Positions 8,586 through 56,018 of a stretch of DNA of 64,000 bases are shown here, in pieces (the stretch's first letter is position 1; every line of letters begins with the position of its first letter). The stretch is taken from NCBI GenBank assembly GCA_963666115.2, contig CAXXET010000006.1, positions 192,001 through 256,000 on the forward strand, in the 5' to 3' direction. The notes beneath the pieces were generated by a model, which saw only the letters and a program-made list of their open reading frames with translations, was not told where the DNA came from and searched no databases. The position numbers and the translations under genes were made by a program. Origin of the DNA: Dehalococcoidia bacterium (GTDB lineage: Bacteria > Chloroflexota > Dehalococcoidia > UBA6926).

Positions 8586-10066
8586 TTGTCCCCTCGCGCA
8601 GTCCCGAGCGCCACATCCGGCGCACGAAGATCATCGCCACGATTGGGCCCGCCTCAAGCGATGAGGGGACGCTGGCTCGCCTCATCGAGGCGGGCGTCGA
8701 TACCGTCAGGCTGAACTTTTCACACGGCACGCCGGATGAGCACGCGGACGTGGTGCGGCGAGTGCGCCGCATCGCCCAACAGACGGGCAGGGCGGTGGGC
8801 GTGCTGCAAGACCTGCAGGGGCCGCGTTTGCGAACCGGCACGTTGGCCGGCGGCGCCCCGGTGATGCTGGAGGACGGCGCTCCGTTCGTGCTGACGGCGC
8901 GGGATTTGCCGGACGGCACGGCGGGGGCGGTGTCCGTGAATCATCCGCATCTGCCGCAGGACGTGCGGCCCGGCGACAGGCTGCTGCTGGCGGACGGGGC
9001 GCTGGAGCTTGAGGTCGCGCGGAGCGACGACGATGACATTCATACGGTCGTCCTGCAGGGGGGCGAGCTTGGCGAGCGGAAGGGCATCAACGCGCCGAAC
9101 ATCAACGTGAGCGTGGCGTCGCCGACAGAGAAGGACCGGGAGGATATGGCGCGCGGCGTGACGATGGGCGTGGACCACGTGGCGCTGTCCTTCGTGCGGA
9201 CGCCGGAGGAGATCGAGGCGGCGCGAGCCATGCTGCGCGAGCTGGGCGCGCCGCATATGTCGATCATCCCCAAGATCGAGCGGTCGGAGGCACTGGACAA
9301 TATCGACGCGATACTTGGGGTGTGCGACGCGGCCATGCTGGCGCGCGGCGACCTCGGGGTCGATCTCGGCGTGGAGCGTGTTCCCATCATCCAGAAGTCC
9401 GTTGTCCACCGCGCGAACCATCGACGCGTGCCGGTGATCGTGGCGACGCAGATGCTGGAATCGATGATCGACAATCGCCGTCCAACGCGGGCGGAGGCGT
9501 CGGACGTGGCCAACGCGGTGCTGGAGGGGGCGGACGCGGTGATGTTAAGCGGGGAGACGTCGATTGGACAGTTCCCGGTGGAATCGGTGCGGACGATGGA
9601 CCGCATCATCCGGGAGGTTGAGATGAGCGACGAGTACCTGGATGTATCGCGGCGGGCGGCGGCGGATTCGGGCGGGCCGGGGACGGACCGAAAGATTGCG
9701 CGCGCCGTGGTGAGCCTGCTCTCCGACATTGGGGCCGCTGCCGTGATCGTCTTTTCACCGGACGATCTGATGCCGGAAATGCTTTCCCTGGAGCGCCCGT
9801 CTGCGCCCGTCATCGCCTTTACGGACAGCCGCGTGCTCTACCGGCGGATGGCGTTGTGGCACGCGATTCAGCCGCAGTGGGGGCTGCGGTACGACGACAC
9901 GGACGCGCTGGTCCAGTACATGCTGGCGGAATCGCGGGATCGGGGGCTTGTGCAGGCCGGGGATGAGGTTGTGGTGGCGCGGCTTGCGCCGCATGACATG
10001 GCCGACGCGCCCAATTTTATTTCCGTGCTGCGGATTCCCGAGGCGCAGCTGGGGCCGCGCAGTTGA
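8582..10066 (+). CDS. pyk: Pyruvate kinase
   Basis: TKIIATIGPA, RLNFSHG, ARGDLG, ATQMLESM, VMLSGETS. Confidence 0.96.
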   Translation: MIVPSRSPERHIRRTKIIATIGPASSDEGTLARLIEAGVDTVRLNFSHGTPDEHADVVRRVRRIAQQTGRAVGVLQDLQGPRLRTGTLAGGAPVMLEDGAPFVLTARDLPDGTAGAVSVNHPHLPQDVRPGDRLLLADGALELEVARSDDDDIHTVVLQGGELGERKGINAPNINVSVASPTEKDREDMARGVTMGVDHVALSFVRTPEEIEAARAMLRELGAPHMSIIPKIERSEALDNIDAILGVCDAAMLARGDLGVDLGVERVPIIQKSVVHRANHRRVPVIVATQMLESMIDNRRPTRAEASDVANAVLEGADAVMLSGETSIGQFPVESVRTMDRIIREVEMSDEYLDVSRRAAADSGGPGTDRKIARAVVSLLSDIGAAAVIVFSPDDLMPEMLSLERPSAPVIAFTDSRVLYRRMALWHAIQPQWGLRYDDTDALVQYMLAESRDRGLVQAGDEVVVARLAPHDMADAPNFISVLRIPEAQLGPRS

Positions 10067-48117: not shown

Positions 48118-48276
48118 GCGTCTGAACTCGTCTTTCCATAGTACTCCGAAACGCAAGCAGGGTGGGCACGCCTGGTTCCCGTGTCAGGCACGGGAAAAGG
48201 AATTGGACGGTGGCGCCGCCTGGGGTTCCGTGTCAGGCACGGGAAACGATTCGGGGGATGGGCGTACACTGTTTGT

Positions 48277-50772
48277 ATGGTGGTTACTGAATCTGATGGT
48301 CGGCTTTCGGGGCTGGAGACGGTCTCGATCAGCGTTTCGGGGATGACGTGCGCGGCGTGCGTGATGCACGTGGAGCATGCGCTGACGGACGTGCCCGGTG
48401 TTGAGGAGGCGCGCGTCAACCTGGCAACGGAGCGCGCCGTCATCGAGGTCCCCGACGGGGTCTCGCTTGACGTGCTTGCCTCGGCGGTCAAGGAGGCGGG
48501 CTACGGCGCCCGGACGGAGACGCAGCGGCTGTTCATCGAGCCGGACACGGACGGCGATGATCCCCGCGAGAAGGCCGTGTCCGCCCTCATGGGCCTTCGC
48601 GGCGTGCGGTGGGCGACGCCCGACGAGGAGGACGCAACCGCCCTGACGGTCGAGCACTACAGCGCGGCGGTCGATACAACCGATATTCGCAGCGCGGTTG
48701 TCGGCACCGGTCTGCGCGTCGCGGGCATCGAGGAGAAAGAGGACGCGCGCGTCGTTGCCAAGGAAGAGGAAGAGCGCGCGCTGCGGCTGCGGTTCCTCAT
48801 CGCGCTGTCCAGCGGCGTGGTCGTCATGCTGCTCGGCATGTCCGGCGTCCTGGAACGGAACATCGCGCACTACGTCATGTTCGCCATTGCGACGCCGATC
48901 CAGTTCTGGGCGGGGTCGCTCTTCTACGCGAGCGCGTGGTCGGCGCTCAAGCAGCGCACGTCCAACATGAACACGCTCATCTCGCTTGGGACGACGGCGG
49001 CGTATTTGTACAGCGTGGCGGCGACGTTCGCGCCGGGGTTCTTTGAATCGGCGGGCGGCGAGGCGGCGGTCTATTACGATACGGCGATCATCATCATCGC
49101 GCTCATCCTCATGGGGCGGTGGATGGAGGCACGGGCGCGGGGCAGGGCCTCGGACGCCATCGCCTCACTCCTCGGCTTGCAGCCGAAATCGGCGCGCGTC
49201 ATCCGTGACGGGGCGGAGATCATGCTGCCGGTGGAGAGCGTGCTGCCAAACGACATCATCGCGGTGCGGCCGGGGGAAAGACTGCCCGTCGACGGCATCT
49301 TGACCGAGGGCGCGTCCACCATCGACGAGTCCATGTTGACGGGAGAGAGCATCCCCGTCGACAAGGGCGAGGGCGATGAGGTGTACGGGGCGACGGTGAA
49401 CGGGACGGGCGCGTTCCGCCTGCGGGCGACGCGGGTTGGCAAGGATACCGCGCTCGCGCAGATTGTCCGCCTCGTGGAGGAGGCGCAGGGGTCGAAGGCG
49501 CCGGTGCAGCGGCTGGCGGACCTCATCTCCTCGTATTTCGTGCCGACCGTCGTGGCCATTTCGATCATCACGTTCATCGTCTGGAGCTTGGCGGGGCCTG
49601 AACCGGCGCTGACGCTGGCGACGCTGAACATGGTGGCGGTGCTGATCATCGCCTGCCCGTGCGCGTTGGGGCTTGCCACACCGACCGCGATCATGGTCGG
49701 CACGGGCAAGGGGGCGGAGAACGGCGTTCTCATCCGCAACGCGCAGGCGCTTGAGCTTGCCAGCAAGATTCGCACCGTCGCGCTGGACAAGACGGGGACG
49801 ATCACGCAGGGGCGTCCGTCCGTTACCGACGTGTTGACGGCGAACGACGCGGCTGAGGGTGACGTTCTTTCGATTGCTGCGACAGTGGAGGCCAGCTCGG
49901 AGCATCCGCTGGCGGAGGCGGTGTTGGCGCGGGCGGGCAGGGCGGCGGGGCAGGACATGACGGTTACGGACTTTGAGGCGCTGCCGGGGGCGGGCGTCAC
50001 GGCGAGCGTGGACGGTCGTCGCGTCGTCATCGGTAGTGCGCGGCTGCTTGTTGATCGGGGCGCGGTTATTTCGGACTCGCTGCGAACGGGGGCGGACGCG
50101 CTGGCAGAGCAGGGCAAGACGCTCATGTTCGTCGCGGTGGATGATGCCGCAATGGGGGTGCTGGCCATCCAGGACCCCGTGAAGCCGTCGGCGAGGCGCG
50201 CCGTTGAGCGGCTCCATGCGATGGGCGTCCGCACCGTTATGCTGACGGGCGATAACCAGGCGACGGCGCAGGCCATCGCCGAGCAGGTCGGCATTACGGA
50301 GGTGCGGGCCGAGGTTCTGCCGGCGCAGAAGGCGGAGGTCGTTGCGGCGCTGCAGGCCGAGGGCGGGCACGTCGCGATGGTTGGCGACGGCATCAACGAT
50401 GCGCCCGCGTTGGCGCAGGCGGACGTCGGCATCGCGATCGGCACGGGGGCGGACGTCGCGATGGAGGCTGCGGACGTGACGCTGGTGAGCGGCGACCCGA
50501 ACGGGGTGGCGACGGCTATCCAGTTGTCGCGACGCACGGTGCGGACGATCTGGCAGAACCTGTTCTGGGCGTTCTTCTATAACGCGACGCTGATTCCGAT
50601 CGCGGCGGGCGCGCTGTACCTGGTGTTCAGCGGCGGCGTGCCGGCGGGGTTGCAGTTCGCGCTTGGCGAGCAGGGCTTCCTGAACCCGATGATGGCGGCG
50701 GCGGCGATGGCGATGTCGAGCGTGAGCGTGGTGCTGAATTCGCTACGGCTGAAGGGGTTTCGGGCGGGGTAA
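48277..50772 (+). CDS. copA: Cu(I)-translocating P1B-type ATPase
   Basis: GMTCAAC, TGES, CPCALG, DKTGT, SEHP, GDGIND, YN, MAMSS. Confidence 0.95.
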
Positions 50773-50848
50773 GGGGCCGCTCGCACAACTGCGATGCCAA
50801 TTCACGGTTGTACGGCTGGCCGCGATGCGTTCGCGTGCAGGGGGCGCC

Positions 50849-52747
50849 CTACTTCATACGGATACGAGCGTAGCCGAGCAAATCCACTCTGCGTCCAAAG
50901 AAAGGCTCCCTGCCTCCGTCCTGGAATCCCCAAACGCTAACGACATAGCCGGATGGGCTTTTCAGGTTCTCAGGGAACTGGAATATCACGCTGAAAGTTC
51001 TCCCCTCGATCAGATATTCGGCGGCAACGGTGTCACCTGAGTCATCAACGTCCCAGCTTGAACCATCATCGAGCGCGGGCAGGATACTGCCAACGTAACT
51101 GCCTGTCTCTGCCGTATGGAGCGTGTAGTTTGTGTAGCCACCTTGTTGTGCATACTCAAGCGTTTCCTTAGAGAGCACTGCGTCATCTAGCAGAGTCCCG
51201 CGGAACGTGACCGAATCGCCATCGTAGGTTGGGTGCTCATCCCACTGAATGAGGCGATGGCTTAGCCTCCCGATGCCCTCGTCAAAGGGACGGTTCTCCG
51301 GGGCGTTTAGTTTGCCAGACCAGTGTTTCTCCACAATGTCGGCTGATTGCGGAAAGGCTTGCCGGACCTCGTGAATGCCTGCGTCCCTGTCTTCCTCGCC
51401 TGCCACGAGGGACAGTCGATACAGCTCGCGCAGTCCCCTGTGGAATTCGTTGCTGCCTAGATCCTCCAACAGATCCAGAAAGAGCGCTTGTCCCAGAAAG
51501 TAGTTGCACAGAAATTGGGGGGTCTGTTGGGTGGGTTGCTGCTGCGTCAGCATCTGCAAGTCGTGCGCTTCGCATTGCCTCCGAGAGGGTGTCGATAACA
51601 GTCCCGGACTCATCCCAGATTCGATACCGTGCATGAACTCGAAAGTATCGGCCACGCCTTCGTCAAGCCAGTCAGCGCTTCCCCTCCAGAAATAGTGTGA
51701 GATCTCGTGAAGAATGAGTTGTGATAGACGATACTTGTCGAAATCTCTCGCCCCCTCCTCGATCCGTGGAAGACCGCTTATGGCAAAGCCGAAATTGGTG
51801 CCTGCGAACTCATCGAGAACGGCAGCGTCATTGATGATGAGGATCACGTGACTGACCGGCAACGGCCTAGCCATTATTCGCTCGGCGTACTCCACAGCGT
51901 CCCTGATCATGTGGCGCGTCCAGTGCTGGGGCGGTCCTTCGGCGCGGACAATGCTGATTTTTAGGTCGGGTGACAATTCCGTCGGACTCTCAAAAGTCTT
52001 GATGTAAACATATCCCGGTATCAGCAGCCTACGCAGTGTCACTGCATCGTCCACCGTGCTCACTGCCGCGACTAAGGTGGTCTGGTCGTCGACGATTCCT
52101 CCACTAAGCGTAGGGTGTTCCAATAGTGAAGACAGCAGGCGGTCGTCTGAGAGTCTTGCCAAACGATAAATGCCCTGGAGAGCAAGCACGTCGTCGGATT
52201 CCAGGGATTCCAAGAACGGCATTCCGATTATGGCGCCGGCTTCAGCGCCATGGTAATAGGCTATCCAACTCATCCATTCAAGCGCATCAGCCTCAGCAGC
52301 GGTGATGTCATCCTGAATCCAGGCGAGGCCCAAGGCTGTGCTTAGGCCGGCGATTTCCCTTTTCCCAATGTAAGTCAGATGTGCAATGGCATGGCGCTCA
52401 AATTCTGAAAGATCATCTTGCGCCCACGGCAGCCCATCCATATTCGTGTACAGTGCAGGATGTTCATGCCGCAGCCACTGGGTGTCCGGTGTGACATATC
52501 GCCCCAACGGGCTGGGCGTTGGTGTAATCGTCGGCGTTGCCGTCGGCGTTGCCGTCGGTGTTGCCGTCGGTGTTGCCGTTGGGGTGGGCGTCGATGTAGG
52601 GCTTGGTTCAGGCGTTGCGGTAGGCGTGGACGTCGCTGTGTGCGTCGCGACAGGCTCCACTACAGGTTCGGCGCTCTCACAGCCGTAGCCGCTAAGCCCT
52701 GCGGCAAGGATGCAGAGGCCAACGAACAATATAGAGGCTTTGAGCAC
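50849..52747 (-). CDS. Exported gluzincin-like zinc metallopeptidase domain protein
   Basis: Signal/lipobox, (TATP)n linker, HEISH...WLDEG. Confidence 0.7.
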   Translation of the reverse strand: MLKASILFVGLCILAAGLSGYGCESAEPVVEPVATHTATSTPTATPEPSPTSTPTPTATPTATPTATPTATPTITPTPSPLGRYVTPDTQWLRHEHPALYTNMDGLPWAQDDLSEFERHAIAHLTYIGKREIAGLSTALGLAWIQDDITAAEADALEWMSWIAYYHGAEAGAIIGMPFLESLESDDVLALQGIYRLARLSDDRLLSSLLEHPTLSGGIVDDQTTLVAAVSTVDDAVTLRRLLIPGYVYIKTFESPTELSPDLKISIVRAEGPPQHWTRHMIRDAVEYAERIMARPLPVSHVILIINDAAVLDEFAGTNFGFAISGLPRIEEGARDFDKYRLSQLILHEISHYFWRGSADWLDEGVADTFEFMHGIESGMSPGLLSTPSRRQCEAHDLQMLTQQQPTQQTPQFLCNYFLGQALFLDLLEDLGSNEFHRGLRELYRLSLVAGEEDRDAGIHEVRQAFPQSADIVEKHWSGKLNAPENRPFDEGIGRLSHRLIQWDEHPTYDGDSVTFRGTLLDDAVLSKETLEYAQQGGYTNYTLHTAETGSYVGSILPALDDGSSWDVDDSGDTVAAEYLIEGRTFSVIFQFPENLKSPSGYVVSVWGFQDGGREPFFGRRVDLLGYARIRMK

Positions 52748-52944
52748 TAGTTCCCTCCCCGCAGCATGAAAGCACCGTGGCGCATCACTCCGCCCATATT
52801 ATCCCCATTACTATCTACCTTGATCATGCGCTCACCACGCCCGTCGTCATCATCGTGTATGTCAATAACGAGACGGGCACGCTTACTGCCACAGGGTAGA
52901 GGGACTCTGGGTTTCCTCTTTCGCGGGAAAAACGAGGCGGGGCG

Positions 52945-52970
52945 CCCTTCGACAGGCTCAGGGTGAACGG
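52945..52970. repeat. Family B repeat (degenerate family A just upstream)
   Basis: CCCTTCGACAGGCTCAGGGTGAACGG. Confidence 0.85.
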
Positions 52971-53015
52971 GGGCGCGGCTAACTGTGGCACTGAATTCGC
53001 TGCGATTGAAAGAGT

Positions 53016-54776
53016 TTAGGGGGAGGTGAGAGGCGAATCTGGCAGCTTGCCGCCGTTGATGTGGAAGTCGATGGAAAACAGTTCCAAGTTGGAGGCTCCC
53101 AGATGACGCGCCATTCGCCGGTACTTCCTGGCCCGCTGACCGTAACCGAGTTTACCGGCGGAGATGGCAGAGAGCATTGCTAGAATCCGGCTCTCAGGCT
53201 CGTAGGCCAGTCCTTTCTCGAAAGCCTCAAGCGCTTCAGAGTCCTTACCTAAGGCGTCGTAGCAGAAGCCAACCGCTGTCCAGTATTCCGAGTCCTGCTG
53301 AACTTTTTCCGGCTGAAGTCGCGTAGATTCAATGGCAATTAGGTGATCAAGGGCCTCCTGATGCTGGCCGTCCTCGATAAGGACGAAACCAATGGTGGTC
53401 CACGGCGCGAGCCATTCCGGCGCCAACTCTGCGGCCAGCCGCAGTTCATCCAGGCCCCTCCGCATCAATGCTGCATCGCCTGTCCTTGCGCCGATGCCTC
53501 CCAGGTGCGATCCAAGTGTGAAGTGATAGGCCGGGTCTGTTGGGTCGAGCTGGACCGCTCTTTCAAGCAGCGCCAGCGCCTCAGACAGCTTTCCTTCCAT
53601 CACTGCGAGTTCCGTTGCGCGCTCGTGCAAGTCGTACGCTTTGGGATTCGAGACGCCCCACGCATCCATGTGCCACTTACGCACGGAATCCGTCATGGAT
53701 GACACTTCCGATTGACGAATGTGGTGGGTGATCTTCTGGACTCGTGTTTCCCAACTGACGGAGTCTGCTGCCGCCAGATCAAGTTTCCATTCTGGGTCTT
53801 CTTCCTGCTTGGCAATATATTGAACGAGCAGCTTCCCAAGTGGGATACCTGTGCCACTGAGGACGAGATCCATGAGAGCCTTTGTGCTATCTGGCTCTCG
53901 CGAAATCTTGCCGAGCCCGTGGAACGACAATTCGGAGTAGCGTCGCAAGTGAGCGACGATCTCATTGGTCTGTTCTGTTCCAATGATGCTCTGGACAAGC
54001 TCAACCATGTCGCTTAGCCAATAGAATTGGCGTAGACGACCGAGCATGAACCTTTCATATTCGCGGCCTATCACTTTCGCCATGGCCGAGGCGATGGTCT
54101 TTAGGTTAGCGTCACTTGGGCGGGCACCGTCGTAGAGCCATCCCGCCACAGTGTTCTTATCCACACCGGTTGCTTCCACAAACCCCTCTACGGTGAGCAA
54201 CTCGTAAGAAAGAGAATCCTGGTTGGCCTTCTGATCCCTCTTGACGTCTCGCCTCATCCAGTTCAAAAGGGCGCCTCGCTTGGAACGATCAAGGTATTCC
54301 ATGCTTTCCAGGTCGCCTAGTGGTATGTCGAGGACACGCATTCCGGCCCCGATGCGAACTGCTATATCGATGGCCGCGAGCCGTATGTATGCTGCCCAGA
54401 CGACGGGCAGATTAGCGCGGTCTACGATTCCAGCGCGGCGGCGCATCTTGGCGACAAACTCGTCCCATCCCCGAACATTGAATTTGAGGGCAAATATCAC
54501 CCTCTCAATGGCGGCATCGCCAGCCTCTTGGGCAGCCGGGATCAGGCCCGTTTCAATCAGAACCCGAGCAAGAGCGCGAAAGATTTCTTCCAGACTGGAG
54601 TCCTTGAGTCCTGCTCCACCTCCTGCGCCCCTAAAGTAACGCTGGGCGTTCTTTGTGCTAAGCGCAGGCTCCTTGATGCCAAGTCGTCGGACAATCGCGC
54701 CGATGACTTGCCCGCTAGTCGGCGGAACCGGCGCAACATCCTCGTACTTGGTCCTTCTGGGCTCGTCACCAGTCAT
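53016..54776 (-). CDS. XRE-like HTH + TPR repeat protein
   Basis: LTVEGFVEATGVDKNTVAGWLYDGARPSDANL HTH; C-terminal TPRs (EALALLERAVQLDP, EALEAFEKGLAYEP). Confidence 0.78.
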   Translation of the reverse strand: MTGDEPRRTKYEDVAPVPPTSGQVIGAIVRRLGIKEPALSTKNAQRYFRGAGGGAGLKDSSLEEIFRALARVLIETGLIPAAQEAGDAAIERVIFALKFNVRGWDEFVAKMRRRAGIVDRANLPVVWAAYIRLAAIDIAVRIGAGMRVLDIPLGDLESMEYLDRSKRGALLNWMRRDVKRDQKANQDSLSYELLTVEGFVEATGVDKNTVAGWLYDGARPSDANLKTIASAMAKVIGREYERFMLGRLRQFYWLSDMVELVQSIIGTEQTNEIVAHLRRYSELSFHGLGKISREPDSTKALMDLVLSGTGIPLGKLLVQYIAKQEEDPEWKLDLAAADSVSWETRVQKITHHIRQSEVSSMTDSVRKWHMDAWGVSNPKAYDLHERATELAVMEGKLSEALALLERAVQLDPTDPAYHFTLGSHLGGIGARTGDAALMRRGLDELRLAAELAPEWLAPWTTIGFVLIEDGQHQEALDHLIAIESTRLQPEKVQQDSEYWTAVGFCYDALGKDSEALEAFEKGLAYEPESRILAMLSAISAGKLGYGQRARKYRRMARHLGASNLELFSIDFHINGGKLPDSPLTSP

Positions 54777-55638
54777 ACTGGCCTCCGCGTTTTATGAACC
54801 TCTCCACATCCACCTGAACCTGTGACAGCGCCGCCTCCACGCCCACCTCCAAGATGGATTGCTCGCTGTAGAGCAGTGTTCCGGCTGTGTTGTCGAAGAA
54901 GCGGCCGGCGGGGTCTACCATGACGTAGCTGCCGGTCATCATGGCGTTGGATTCGGGGACGACTTTGATGCCCTCGGACTCCAGGTGGCGGTGGCGGGCG
55001 ACGTAGGTATCGAAGTCCTCGGCGGTGACGGTGAGGTTGCCGAGGGTGTCGTCGTTTTGGCCGTCTATGGGGAGGACCTGGAAGATCTTCCAGCGCTCCG
55101 GCCTCGCCCAGCGGATGAACTCCGTCATGTCCTCGTCCTTGTTCGCGTGCGTGACGACCGTGTTTATCTTGAGGCGGAAGCCGCGTTCCCGCGCCAATTC
55201 GACAAGGCCATGATATTCGCTCTCGTTGAGCGGCCCCTGCCTGAGCGTTCGGCCTGTCCTGGCGTTGACTGCCGTGTCGAGCGAATCGATGCTGAGGGTC
55301 ACCCAATCGAGCGTTCCGGTCAATTCGTCAAGGTAGTCGGCACGGAGCCTCGTGCCGTTGGTGACGATTGACGTGGTCATGCCGTGCTCCTTGCCCTGCC
55401 GGATCAAGTCTGGCAGCCAGGGGCAGAGGGTCGGCTCGCCGCCCGCGAAGGTGATTTTCTCGAATCCGGCCTGCGCCAGGCGCTCTACAACGGCGAGCGT
55501 GTCTTCGCGGGGCAGGTGGCCCTTGGGGAGTCGATCTGCCTTCACGTCCTCAAACTTGGCGAAGCAGAAGTTGCAGCCCATGTTGCATGGCTTCCAGAGG
55601 TGGTAGTTCACGGACGGTATTGGTGGTCGGTCTGTCAT
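54766..55638 (-). CDS. Prokaryotic viperin (antiviral radical SAM enzyme)
   Basis: SVNYHLWKPCNMGCNFCF, KITFAGGEP, IVTNG, LSIDS, KINTVV, RWKIFQ, SYVMVD..GRF, terminal KRGG.YDW; GGAGG RBS. Confidence 0.92.
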   Translation of the reverse strand: MTDRPPIPSVNYHLWKPCNMGCNFCFAKFEDVKADRLPKGHLPREDTLAVVERLAQAGFEKITFAGGEPTLCPWLPDLIRQGKEHGMTTSIVTNGTRLRADYLDELTGTLDWVTLSIDSLDTAVNARTGRTLRQGPLNESEYHGLVELARERGFRLKINTVVTHANKDEDMTEFIRWARPERWKIFQVLPIDGQNDDTLGNLTVTAEDFDTYVARHRHLESEGIKVVPESNAMMTGSYVMVDPAGRFFDNTAGTLLYSEQSILEVGVEAALSQVQVDVERFIKRGGQYDW

Positions 55639-55811
55639 GTATGCCTCCCTTGTAGTATTGCTCATGCATCCATGATTCATCGCGAGCAGCAGGGAGTCAG
55701 CACCAGTTTGGTGGACAAAAAGCCTCAGCCGACTCGGTTCGTGCGTTAAGATGGTTGAGGTTGCGGAAGAGGGAGGGCCTTGGGGCGCGCGGCGAGCGAG
55801 GGGGCTGAGCG

Positions 55812-56018
55812 ATGGTTAGCAAGTTTTTGGGGTTTATGAAGAAGGAGGAGCCGGAGGAGGACCCGGTGTGCCATATGATGGTCAGCCCGAGCAGGCCGCC
55901 GGGCGGATCGTATGAGTACGAGGGGACGACGTACTATTTCTGCGGGCCGGGGTGCCGCGTCGCGTTCTCCAAGGAGCCGGAGGCGTACCTGAGCGGCGAG
56001 AAGCGCATGGACATGTGA
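55812..56018 (+). CDS. YHS domain protein
   Basis: DPVCHMMV...[18 protein letters not shown]. Confidence 0.88.

Follow-up and report, generated by a model that had tools for sequence, protein, structure and literature searches.

In a Dehalococcoidia bacterium, a gene for a prokaryotic viperin is directly followed by a gene for a protein (the partner) that joins a helix-turn-helix (HTH) domain to tetratricopeptide repeats (TPRs), and the two genes are preceded by a conserved DNA element that goes with the family of the partner and not with viperin. The pair lies in a stretch of 64,000 nucleotides (nt), here called the window (contig CAXXET010000006.1, positions 192,001 to 256,000), on contig 6 of a 2.07-Mb genome (G000). 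With slightly better than even confidence, we propose that this element is the site at which the partner, acting as a signal-sensing transcription factor, controls the viperin operon. The proposal follows from the DNA-binding domain predicted in the partner, the promoter-proximal position of the element, the co-variation of the element with the regulator rather than with its cargo, a peak of conservation at the recognition helix, and a terminator-like hairpin behind the pair. That the partner binds DNA, in which direction it exerts control, that it responds to a signal, and that the system acts against phage in this organism are our inferences.

A recurrent viperin-partner pair

By every library tried, the first gene encodes a prokaryotic viperin. 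Its product scores 314 bits against the NCBIfam model NF038283 (viperin_w_prok; cut-off, 180 bits), matches the PADLOC pVip models with E-values from 2e-86 to 2e-110 and Pfam Radical_SAM with 7.5e-23, and carries the radical-S-adenosylmethionine (SAM) motif CxxxCxxC as CNMGCNFC. An interpretation made earlier from the letters of the window (the sequence-only reading) had called this viperin intact, and these matches agree. Synthesis of 3'-deoxy-3',4'-didehydro-nucleoside triphosphates (NTPs) is the known chemistry of the viperin family; production of antiviral chain terminators is presumed for the enzyme of the window. The second gene begins within the end of the first. The junction codons CAG TAT GAC TGG TGA enclose the ATG of the partner, giving the 11-nt overlap with a gene of 586 amino acids (aa) that the sequence-only reading had described. 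The N-terminus of the partner is readable from the overlap ATG in the window and in three further genomes of its genus (G013, G002, and G021), all of which have the pair. ATG-in-stop junctions of a comparable kind are seen in several further loci, which were not counted.

How regularly do the two genes occur together? The sequence-only reading had suggested that recurrent linkage would support a functional pair, and the linkage does recur. A pattern scan with the partner alignment, covering one genome per species, returned 20 loci, and a viperin lies directly upstream in 20/20, in addition to the three genus genomes. The viperins of those 20 loci are 55–71% identical to that of the window and end within ~200 nt of the partner. 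The full set of 23 distinct loci comes from metagenome-assembled genomes of Dehalococcoidia/Chloroflexota, with the window counted and L026 treated as the same locus as G013; in all 23, the gene immediately before the partner, in the same orientation, encodes viperin. Among 41 relatives, a viperin above the cut-off was found in five genomes, with the partner directly after it in four of them. Of 401 genomes that sample the phylum evenly, two encode a viperin above the cut-off, and the partner adjoins it in both.

Two genes may be neighbors without a functional link if a mobile fragment carries both of them. The pair occupies a variable chromosomal site in the genus, which fits horizontal movement. 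Against this, the pair has been kept in 23 loci whose viperins are 56–78% identical to that of the window, and the flanks differ from locus to locus. Clustering of the open reading frames (ORFs) in the flanks of the 23 loci gave no third gene family common to more than 4–5 of them, and the clusters that reach this size consist of antisense ORFs or, in the genus, of copA. Order, orientation, and spacing of the pair are uniform throughout. Hence, we regard simple co-transfer as very improbable.

Some loci depart from the common arrangement. G001 (L025, G001:C70, 2529-5807) has a second kind of viperin for the genus (52% identical), without an HTH-TPR partner and without the element; downstream of it are genes for a HigB-like toxin, an HTH_3 antitoxin (HigA), and a HEPN_Swt1 protein. 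This context resembles the RelE and HicA neighbors of viperins described in the consulted part of a preprint. The viperin of L034 and the partner of L044 are frame-shifted, and the partner of L045 is truncated at about residue 402, behind the one upstream element of which half remains. These cases may reflect decay of the system, or sequencing errors.

An upstream element that accompanies the partner family

The element has the consensus (T)TTGTCC-N4-RACTKGGG and is the single conserved block in upstream regions that are otherwise unalignable. A -35-like CTGAC adjoins its 3' end, and TAnnAT comes after an unconserved spacer of 17–18 nt. In 22 of the 23 viperin loci, it lies 80–108 nt ahead of the viperin start. 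Nineteen of the 23 have the exact 16-nt pattern, three more have it with 2 mismatches, and L045 keeps the second half alone. When 29 non-redundant blocks are aligned with the element as anchor, the element itself contains 1.36 bits per position, a value inflated by the anchoring, as compared with 0.71 for the -35 hexamer, 0.64 for the -10 window, and 0.16–0.21 for flanks and spacer; the -10 signal was not used as an anchor and is not inflated. A tA..AT signal stands at a fixed 41–46 nt from the element start, outside the anchoring. The promoter assignment is taken from this cross-locus alignment and not from a sigma-70 consensus scan, which at its thresholds gave no site upstream of viperin.

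What other genes lie under the element? In five family members that are not linked to viperin, the element is 290–360 nt ahead of the HTH-TPR gene, and a short gene lies between the two. The short gene, which is preceded by a ribosome-binding site of its own, codes for a charged protein of 45–56 aa with the motif NPNNxxYWxSRG[WFY]xxRPxDW. Since this gene sits between the element and the HTH-TPR gene, the cassette can be described as an element with its promoter, then viperin or the small protein, then the HTH-TPR gene. The element stands ahead of such small protein-HTH-TPR paralogue cassettes on contig 8 of the window genome (G000:C8), in four genomes of another genus, and on metagenome contigs. 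Small-protein loci were noted at L024:6617-6787 (G000:C8), L050:6138-6308 (G000:C1), L046-L049, L053, L054, and L055-L134. A 264-aa ORF after the contig 8 paralogue was rejected as a gene, the opposite strand there encoding a YceI-domain protein.

The distribution of the element follows these cassettes. The 16-nt pattern has three matches in the 2.07-Mb genome, as compared with none for the reversed control: one before viperin, one before the small-protein/paralogue cassette of contig 8, and one before a small-protein gene on contig 1 that is followed by a MatE gene. Across all loci examined, the 18-nt form with at most one mismatch has 32 matches, of which 19 precede viperin, 9 the small protein, and 1 an Smr-domain gene; of the remaining three, one is a remnant at the same site of G009, and two have no explanation. 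Pattern matches in G014 fall within a long repeat-protein region and are taken as chance. In a metagenome scan, at least 353 of at least 594 pattern matches are confirmed relatives of the small protein. Among the matches listed, 80 metagenome loci were kept, and an ORF-based profile found the small protein in 56 of them; the HTH-TPR gene is directly downstream in 8 of these 56. Seven of the eight have enough upstream sequence, and the element is present with at most one mismatch in three and as a 3-mismatch variant at the same position in four. Also among the matches listed, none of the 26 small-protein loci that have at least 1.2 kb of downstream sequence and lack an HTH-TPR gene carries the element within 400 nt upstream, 5 of these 26 having <200 nt of upstream sequence.

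It is thus the regulator family, rather than viperin, that the element accompanies. The sequence-only reading had proposed that the partner might control the expression or activity of viperin, and it is control of expression that gains independent support here: whichever gene comes first, the element, a putative binding site, stays with the family of the partner.

The small protein is unannotated. Pfam and NCBIfam hold no family for it, and ESM Atlas places it in unnamed clusters alone, at 0.87–0.89, below the trust level. Viral contigs encode 13 relatives of the small protein and none of the partner. The small-protein gene comes before that of a MatE-family membrane protein in three genomes of the genus. 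A further gene type was seen at L043, where an Smr-domain gene (8852-9325, minus strand; Pfam, 39.5 bits against a cut-off of 25.7) lies just after the partner gene and convergent with it. Ahead of this gene, at L043:9407, is a second copy of the element, perfect and with CTGAC. It is possible that the Smr gene of L043 is a third cargo of the same regulator.

Layout of the proposed operon in the window

The features of the locus are listed in Table 1. The viperin frame is open over 54766..55680 (304 aa to its first start). We take the ATG at 55638 to be the better start, because the alternative in-frame ATG at 55680 falls within the inferred promoter spacer. Another in-frame ATG (55663-55665) lies about 6 nt past the inferred -10 hexamer in the window, and it is likewise present in G013 and G021 and absent from G002. 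It might allow a leaderless viperin of 299 aa; the ribosome-binding site and the alignments favor the ATG at 55638. The hairpin behind the partner likely marks the end of a two-gene operon; the consensus scan that found it returned 9 sites in the scanned region, as compared with 4.2 expected. An Rfam scan of 52700-56000 at E <= 1 gave no matches. Among sequencing runs, none of RNA was listed as containing the locus, and six runs share small fractions of its words (0.07–0.12).

Table 1. Features of the viperin-partner locus, in window coordinates
Feature	Coordinates	Strand	Basis
Viperin (pVip, radical-SAM enzyme), 290 aa	54766..55638	minus	NF038283, PADLOC, CNMGCNFC motif
Partner protein, 586 aa, all-helical	53016..54776	minus	Pfam TPRs, AlphaFold (AF2) models, HTH fold matches
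11-nt overlap ATGACTGGTGA (viperin stop and partner start)	54766..54776	minus	ORF reading, junction comparison
Conserved cis element TTGTCCACCAAACTGGTG, candidate operator of the partner	55701..55718	minus	Cross-locus pattern matches
-35-like hexamer CTGACT, directly 3' of the element	55695..55700	minus	Anchored alignment of 29 non-redundant upstream regions
-10-like hexamer AATCAT, 17 nt past the -35-like hexamer	55672..55677	minus	tA..AT signal in the anchored alignment
Viperin ribosome-binding site AGGGAGG	55644..55650	minus	5 nt ahead of the ATG at 55638
Terminator-like GC hairpin and T run, ~70 nt past the partner stop	52925..52947	minus	Consensus scan only

The partner has a predicted internal DNA-binding domain and C-terminal repeats

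The partner can be divided into a helical N-terminal domain (residues ~1–160), an XRE-type HTH (~161–260), a helical middle region (~261–380), and TPRs (~380–575). The sequence-only reading had seen an XRE-like HTH and C-terminal TPRs. Both stand, on the strength of fold matches, a profile search of the PDB, and Pfam TPR assignments, with the correction that the HTH is internal, having about 160 residues ahead of it. Pfam assigns TPR families alone to the partner, the best stretches being within residues 389–531; in the window protein, it detects neither the HTH nor a WYL domain. Weak matches to HTH_3 and HTH_31 are found in relatives. The AlphaFold models have a pLDDT of 83 for the whole partner and 84 for residues 1–380. 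In a VIA-align search with the 1–380 model, 49 of the 50 rows listed fall on residues 161–261, nearly all of them XRE-type regulators or repressors with Z scores of 6–8.7; the result therefore bears on the HTH stretch and not on residues 1–160 or 261–380. The top match is a Chloroflexus HTH protein (Z 8.7, root-mean-square deviation (rmsd) 2.7, 84 residues aligned), and HigA, DdrO, P22 c2, C.AhdI, CapH, SinR, ComR, and PrgX match at Z 6–8.4. A profile of residues 1–380 searched against the PDB likewise matched the HTHs of HigA, P22 C2, and CapH, with E-values of 2e-4 to 2e-2. By both searches, residues 161–261 have the five-helix fold of XRE-type HTHs.

The C-terminal part resembles protein-binding scaffolds. 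The last 200 residues match PilW (Z 18.3, rmsd 3.8, 199 aligned) and MamA (Z 17.7). Foldseek gave generic TPR matches only for the whole partner against the PDB, and for residues 1–380 nothing at E <= 0.001. The 50 rows listed for the whole model in the VIA search include no RRNPP receptor that covers HTH and TPR together. A second, N-terminal HTH at residues 21–54, which would have provided two HTHs for two half-sites, was considered and dropped, being without a supporting fold match. Many viperin-linked partners from larger genomes (3–4.7 Mb) are 850–960 aa long (L029, L035-L043, P0008, P0009) and have a long extra C-terminal TPR array that the partner of the window does not have.

The partner belongs to a sizeable family. 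A profile search of 1.84 billion representatives returned 449 proteins at E <= 1e-30, and many of the best 150 are full-length proteins of 550–620 aa; the much larger counts at weaker E-values are TPR noise. For a tree, 118 family sequences were gathered (94 full-length representatives and 24 partners derived from the loci), and 115 passed an N-terminal profile filter. The FastTree phylogeny of the non-TPR part (115 rows, 381 columns), which has local supports only and several branches flagged as long, splits into two sides. One side has 39 rows and a support of 100 and includes all 20 viperin-linked partners. The other has 76 rows and includes 4 members known not to be linked to viperin. Most of the diversity of the family is on this second side, where the members of known context come after the small protein. 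Those 4 members and a fifth (G208) lie among housekeeping genes, in genomes without any viperin. As the side of 76 rows contains non-viperin members, the family is not viperin-specific. Judged by this tree, viperin-linked members form one clade, which fits a regulator family that took on viperin as cargo once.

Conservation within the family is greatest where DNA would be contacted. Across 115 members, the recognition-helix stretch (residues 205–221) is the best conserved, with a mean top-residue frequency of 0.56 as compared with 0.35–0.42 elsewhere, and W213 (1.00) and P220 (0.96) are near-invariant. When loci are compared two by two, viperin is the better conserved of the two proteins in 186 of 190 pairs; the pairs are kin and not independent. 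At one chromosomal site in the genus, viperins are 71–78% identical, the upstream element is identical, and the partners are of two types that are only 24–26% identical: that of the window and L021 (G013), and that of L022 (G002) and L023 (G021). The switch between types begins right behind the conserved ATGAGTGGTGA junction, and divergence is even across all four regions of the protein rather than concentrated in the TPRs. Such a pattern points to exchange of the partner gene as a whole, or to its very rapid evolution.

How might the partner act?

In the mechanism that we favor, viperin and its dedicated XRE-HTH/TPR transcription factor would form a two-gene operon, with viperin first and the regulator second. 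Viperin would make 3'-deoxy-3',4'-didehydro-NTP chain terminators. The internal HTH of the partner would bind TTGTCC-N4-RACTKGGG next to a poor -35 hexamer, and the bound partner would set transcription both of viperin and of its own gene. The TPRs, the N-terminal domain, or both would take up a signal that switches the partner. We lean modestly toward activation on signal rather than repression, because the element is just upstream of a weak -35 that is paired with a good -10, and a position just upstream of a weak -35 is the usual site for an activator.

Several observations weigh against this mechanism. First, the viperin and partner genes have a stop/start overlap, and such an overlap suggests co-translation at a fixed ratio, which would be more usual for the subunits of a complex than for a regulator paired with its target. 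Second, the element precedes small-protein genes without an adjacent HTH-TPR gene on G000:C1 and in G012, and no family member was seen in G012, a genome that is 86% complete; another factor could therefore read the element. Third, the bare 16-nt pattern occurs elsewhere about once per genome, which is the level expected by chance, and so the argument rests on the position of the matches and not on their counts. Fourth, there is no inverted repeat in 55600-55830, and the element is asymmetric, with no clear palindrome; an asymmetric site is unusual for a dimeric XRE repressor. Fifth, partners of two types that share 24–26% identity sit behind an identical element, such that both types must read the same DNA.

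There are two other ways to account for much of this evidence. The partner may act mainly at the protein level, with its TPRs and N-terminal domain binding viperin or a phage protein and switching activity or localization, and with the HTH serving in autoregulation or nucleic-acid sensing. Coupled translation, as the 11-nt overlap suggests in the window and in its genus relatives, would suit such a role, as would the TPRs, which are protein-binding scaffolds by their fold matches. The faster divergence of the partner is also what would be expected of a sensor in an arms race. Nevertheless, the same family follows a 45–56-aa protein that is unrelated to viperin, under the same upstream element, and an interface specific to viperin is thus not something that the family has in common. 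In addition, conservation in the family peaks at the recognition helix, and the two genus types diverge evenly over the four regions, not chiefly in the TPRs. A complex prediction for viperin and the partner from paired 20-row alignments scored 0.00 and counts neither way. We consider action mainly at the protein level unlikely.

Alternatively, the element may be read by some other, unlinked factor, such as that of a stress or alternative-sigma regulon, with viperin, the small proteins, and the HTH-TPR genes as co-members and with another role for the partner. The elements on G000:C1 and in G012, the asymmetry of the site, and the persistence of the element at the empty or replaced site in G009 would all be explained in this way. 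Three points argue otherwise. The element is absent from all 26 listed small-protein loci that lack an HTH-TPR gene; the HTH-TPR-linked loci with enough upstream sequence all carry the element or its 3-mismatch variant at the same position; and the third site in G000 could be served in trans by the two family members that this genome encodes. An unlinked reader is, in our judgment, a little less probable than action at the protein level.

If the partner is the transcription factor that we favor, what might it sense? One tentative extension, to which we give clearly less than an even chance, is that the HTH-TPR protein is an infection sensor. A phage-derived cue at the TPR or N-terminal domain would turn on viperin transcription, much as animal viperin is induced by infection, and the same family and operator would drive the small protein and the Smr nuclease. 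The cassettes would then be modular inducible defenses made of an operator, a cargo, and a sensor/regulator.

Chromosomal context

In the window, the pair lies between a gene for a copper P-type ATPase, copA (48181-50772, named from its translation only), and a divergent YHS-domain gene (55812-56018). The G+C content of the pair stretch is 0.55–0.59, as compared with about 0.65. The distance between copA and the YHS gene was computed in the 20 genus genomes that have both flanking genes on one contig. The interval is empty (110–211 nt) in 13 of the 20, contains the viperin pair in 4 (G000, G013, G002, and G021), and has other content in 3: a GmrSD_N and HNH protein in G003 (L136:837-2204), a trypsin-like lipoprotein in G007 (L135), and two unassigned ORFs in G009 (L051), together with the element remnant, which adjoins the YHS gene. 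The copA-YHS interval is a hotspot of variable content, with a restriction-type gene among its occupants.

A gene for a putative lipoprotein of 632 aa (50849-52747, minus strand) separates the pair from copA in the window. Its product has a start like that of lipoproteins, a PT-rich linker, and a HEISH motif and matches no Pfam family. A 46-nt copy of the copA 3' end (50728-50773) is found at the partner stop (52985-53030), and the two copies flank the 632-aa gene. The end of the partner gene overlaps that of copA by about 8 nt in G013 and lies within about 140 nt of it in G002 and G021. Given the flanking copies and the closeness of partner and copA in these three genomes, the 632-aa gene looks like a later insertion.

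At other loci, some neighbors are of defense type: a SIR2-STAND NTPase-TPR protein (L041:8704-11814, minus strand) and a type I HsdM methylase (L043:2587-4701, minus strand). Among nine neighbors of the pair that were scanned, four are of housekeeping type (trigger factor, amidohydrolase, metallo-beta-lactamase fold), and three have no Pfam family.

Relationship to known systems and significance

To our knowledge, prokaryotic viperins have been treated as stand-alone or kinase-assisted enzymes. Prokaryotic viperins (pVips) are said to have been described by Bernheim and colleagues in 2021 as occurring solo or with nucleotide kinases. The enzyme of the window belongs to this same family, above the curated cut-offs; its locus has no adjacent kinase and instead has a conserved HTH-TPR neighbor and a conserved upstream element. 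In the consulted part of a preprint on viperin evolution (Shomar et al. 2023), kinases are the only neighbors named, and TPRs, tetratricopeptides, and helix-turn-helix domains are not mentioned. A viperin system with a TPR-domain protein is a catalogued type, reported, in the portions of the sources consulted, from Archaea only (NAR 2026, PMC12988326, and a preprint). The consulted parts of an Asgard paper and of a defense-landscape preprint mention no viperin-TPR pairing, the preprint part being without TPRs altogether, and those of the BrxR paper name viperins in the introduction only. The sequence-only reading did not recognize the pairing from described systems. That statement needs to be narrowed in view of the archaeal type and holds for the bacterial HTH-TPR pairing: the literature searched describes neither a bacterial viperin with an HTH-TPR partner nor transcriptional control of a prokaryotic viperin. 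The archaeal type, compared here by its description only, likewise has a viperin adjoining a TPR protein. The pair of the window differs in being bacterial (Dehalococcoidia) and in having a partner that carries an HTH and matches no PADLOC 2.0.0 model at E-values up to 10.

The partner also invites comparison with ligand-sensing regulators. RRNPP receptors (Rap, NprR, PlcR, PrgX, and ComR/Rgg) and the phage protein AimR combine an XRE-type HTH with a TPR-like ligand domain in one chain, as the partner does; the HTHs of ComR and PrgX superpose on that of the partner at Z 6.1–6.5, and Rap TPR domains match at Z 13.8–14.5. The sequence-only reading had drawn this analogy, which proves to be loose. 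In RRNPP receptors, the HTH is N-terminal and directly precedes the TPRs, whereas that of the partner is at residues 161–260 and is followed by 120 helical residues before the TPRs start at about residue 380. Rap proteins score below many generic TPR proteins against the partner. No gene for a secreted cognate peptide was identified in the two-gene operon, in an analysis that used no signal-peptide predictor. The small protein of the paralogous cassettes, which is charged, is encoded upstream of the regulator.

With the BrxR/CapW WYL proteins and CapH-CapP, the partner shares the concept of a dedicated regulator encoded with a defense system, and the N-terminal HTH of CapH is among its matches (Z 7.3; profile E 0.006). 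The partner differs from these in having no WYL domain (Pfam detects TPRs only) and no protease partner, in being encoded downstream of the effector, and in having TPRs as its putative sensor part. If our reading is true, the viperin of the window would be inducible rather than constitutive, as is the interferon-induced viperin of animals (RSAD2), with a wholly different control logic and regulators that have no homology. The enzyme, the concept of a defense regulator, and the viperin-TPR type were already known; new, as far as we have seen, are the bacterial family, the operator-like element, and the alternative cargoes.

What are the implications of a dedicated viperin regulator? First, a regulator with a recognizable operator would make control of viperin directly testable. 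Second, it would give a handle on the signal for deploying a chain-terminator defense that is potentially costly to the host. Third, these findings define a sizeable, uncharacterized HTH-TPR family and a candidate regulon, one member of which is a small protein that is widespread and unannotated. Fourth, if the partner is an infection sensor, the operon would be a bacterial counterpart of the infection-induced expression of viperin in animals.

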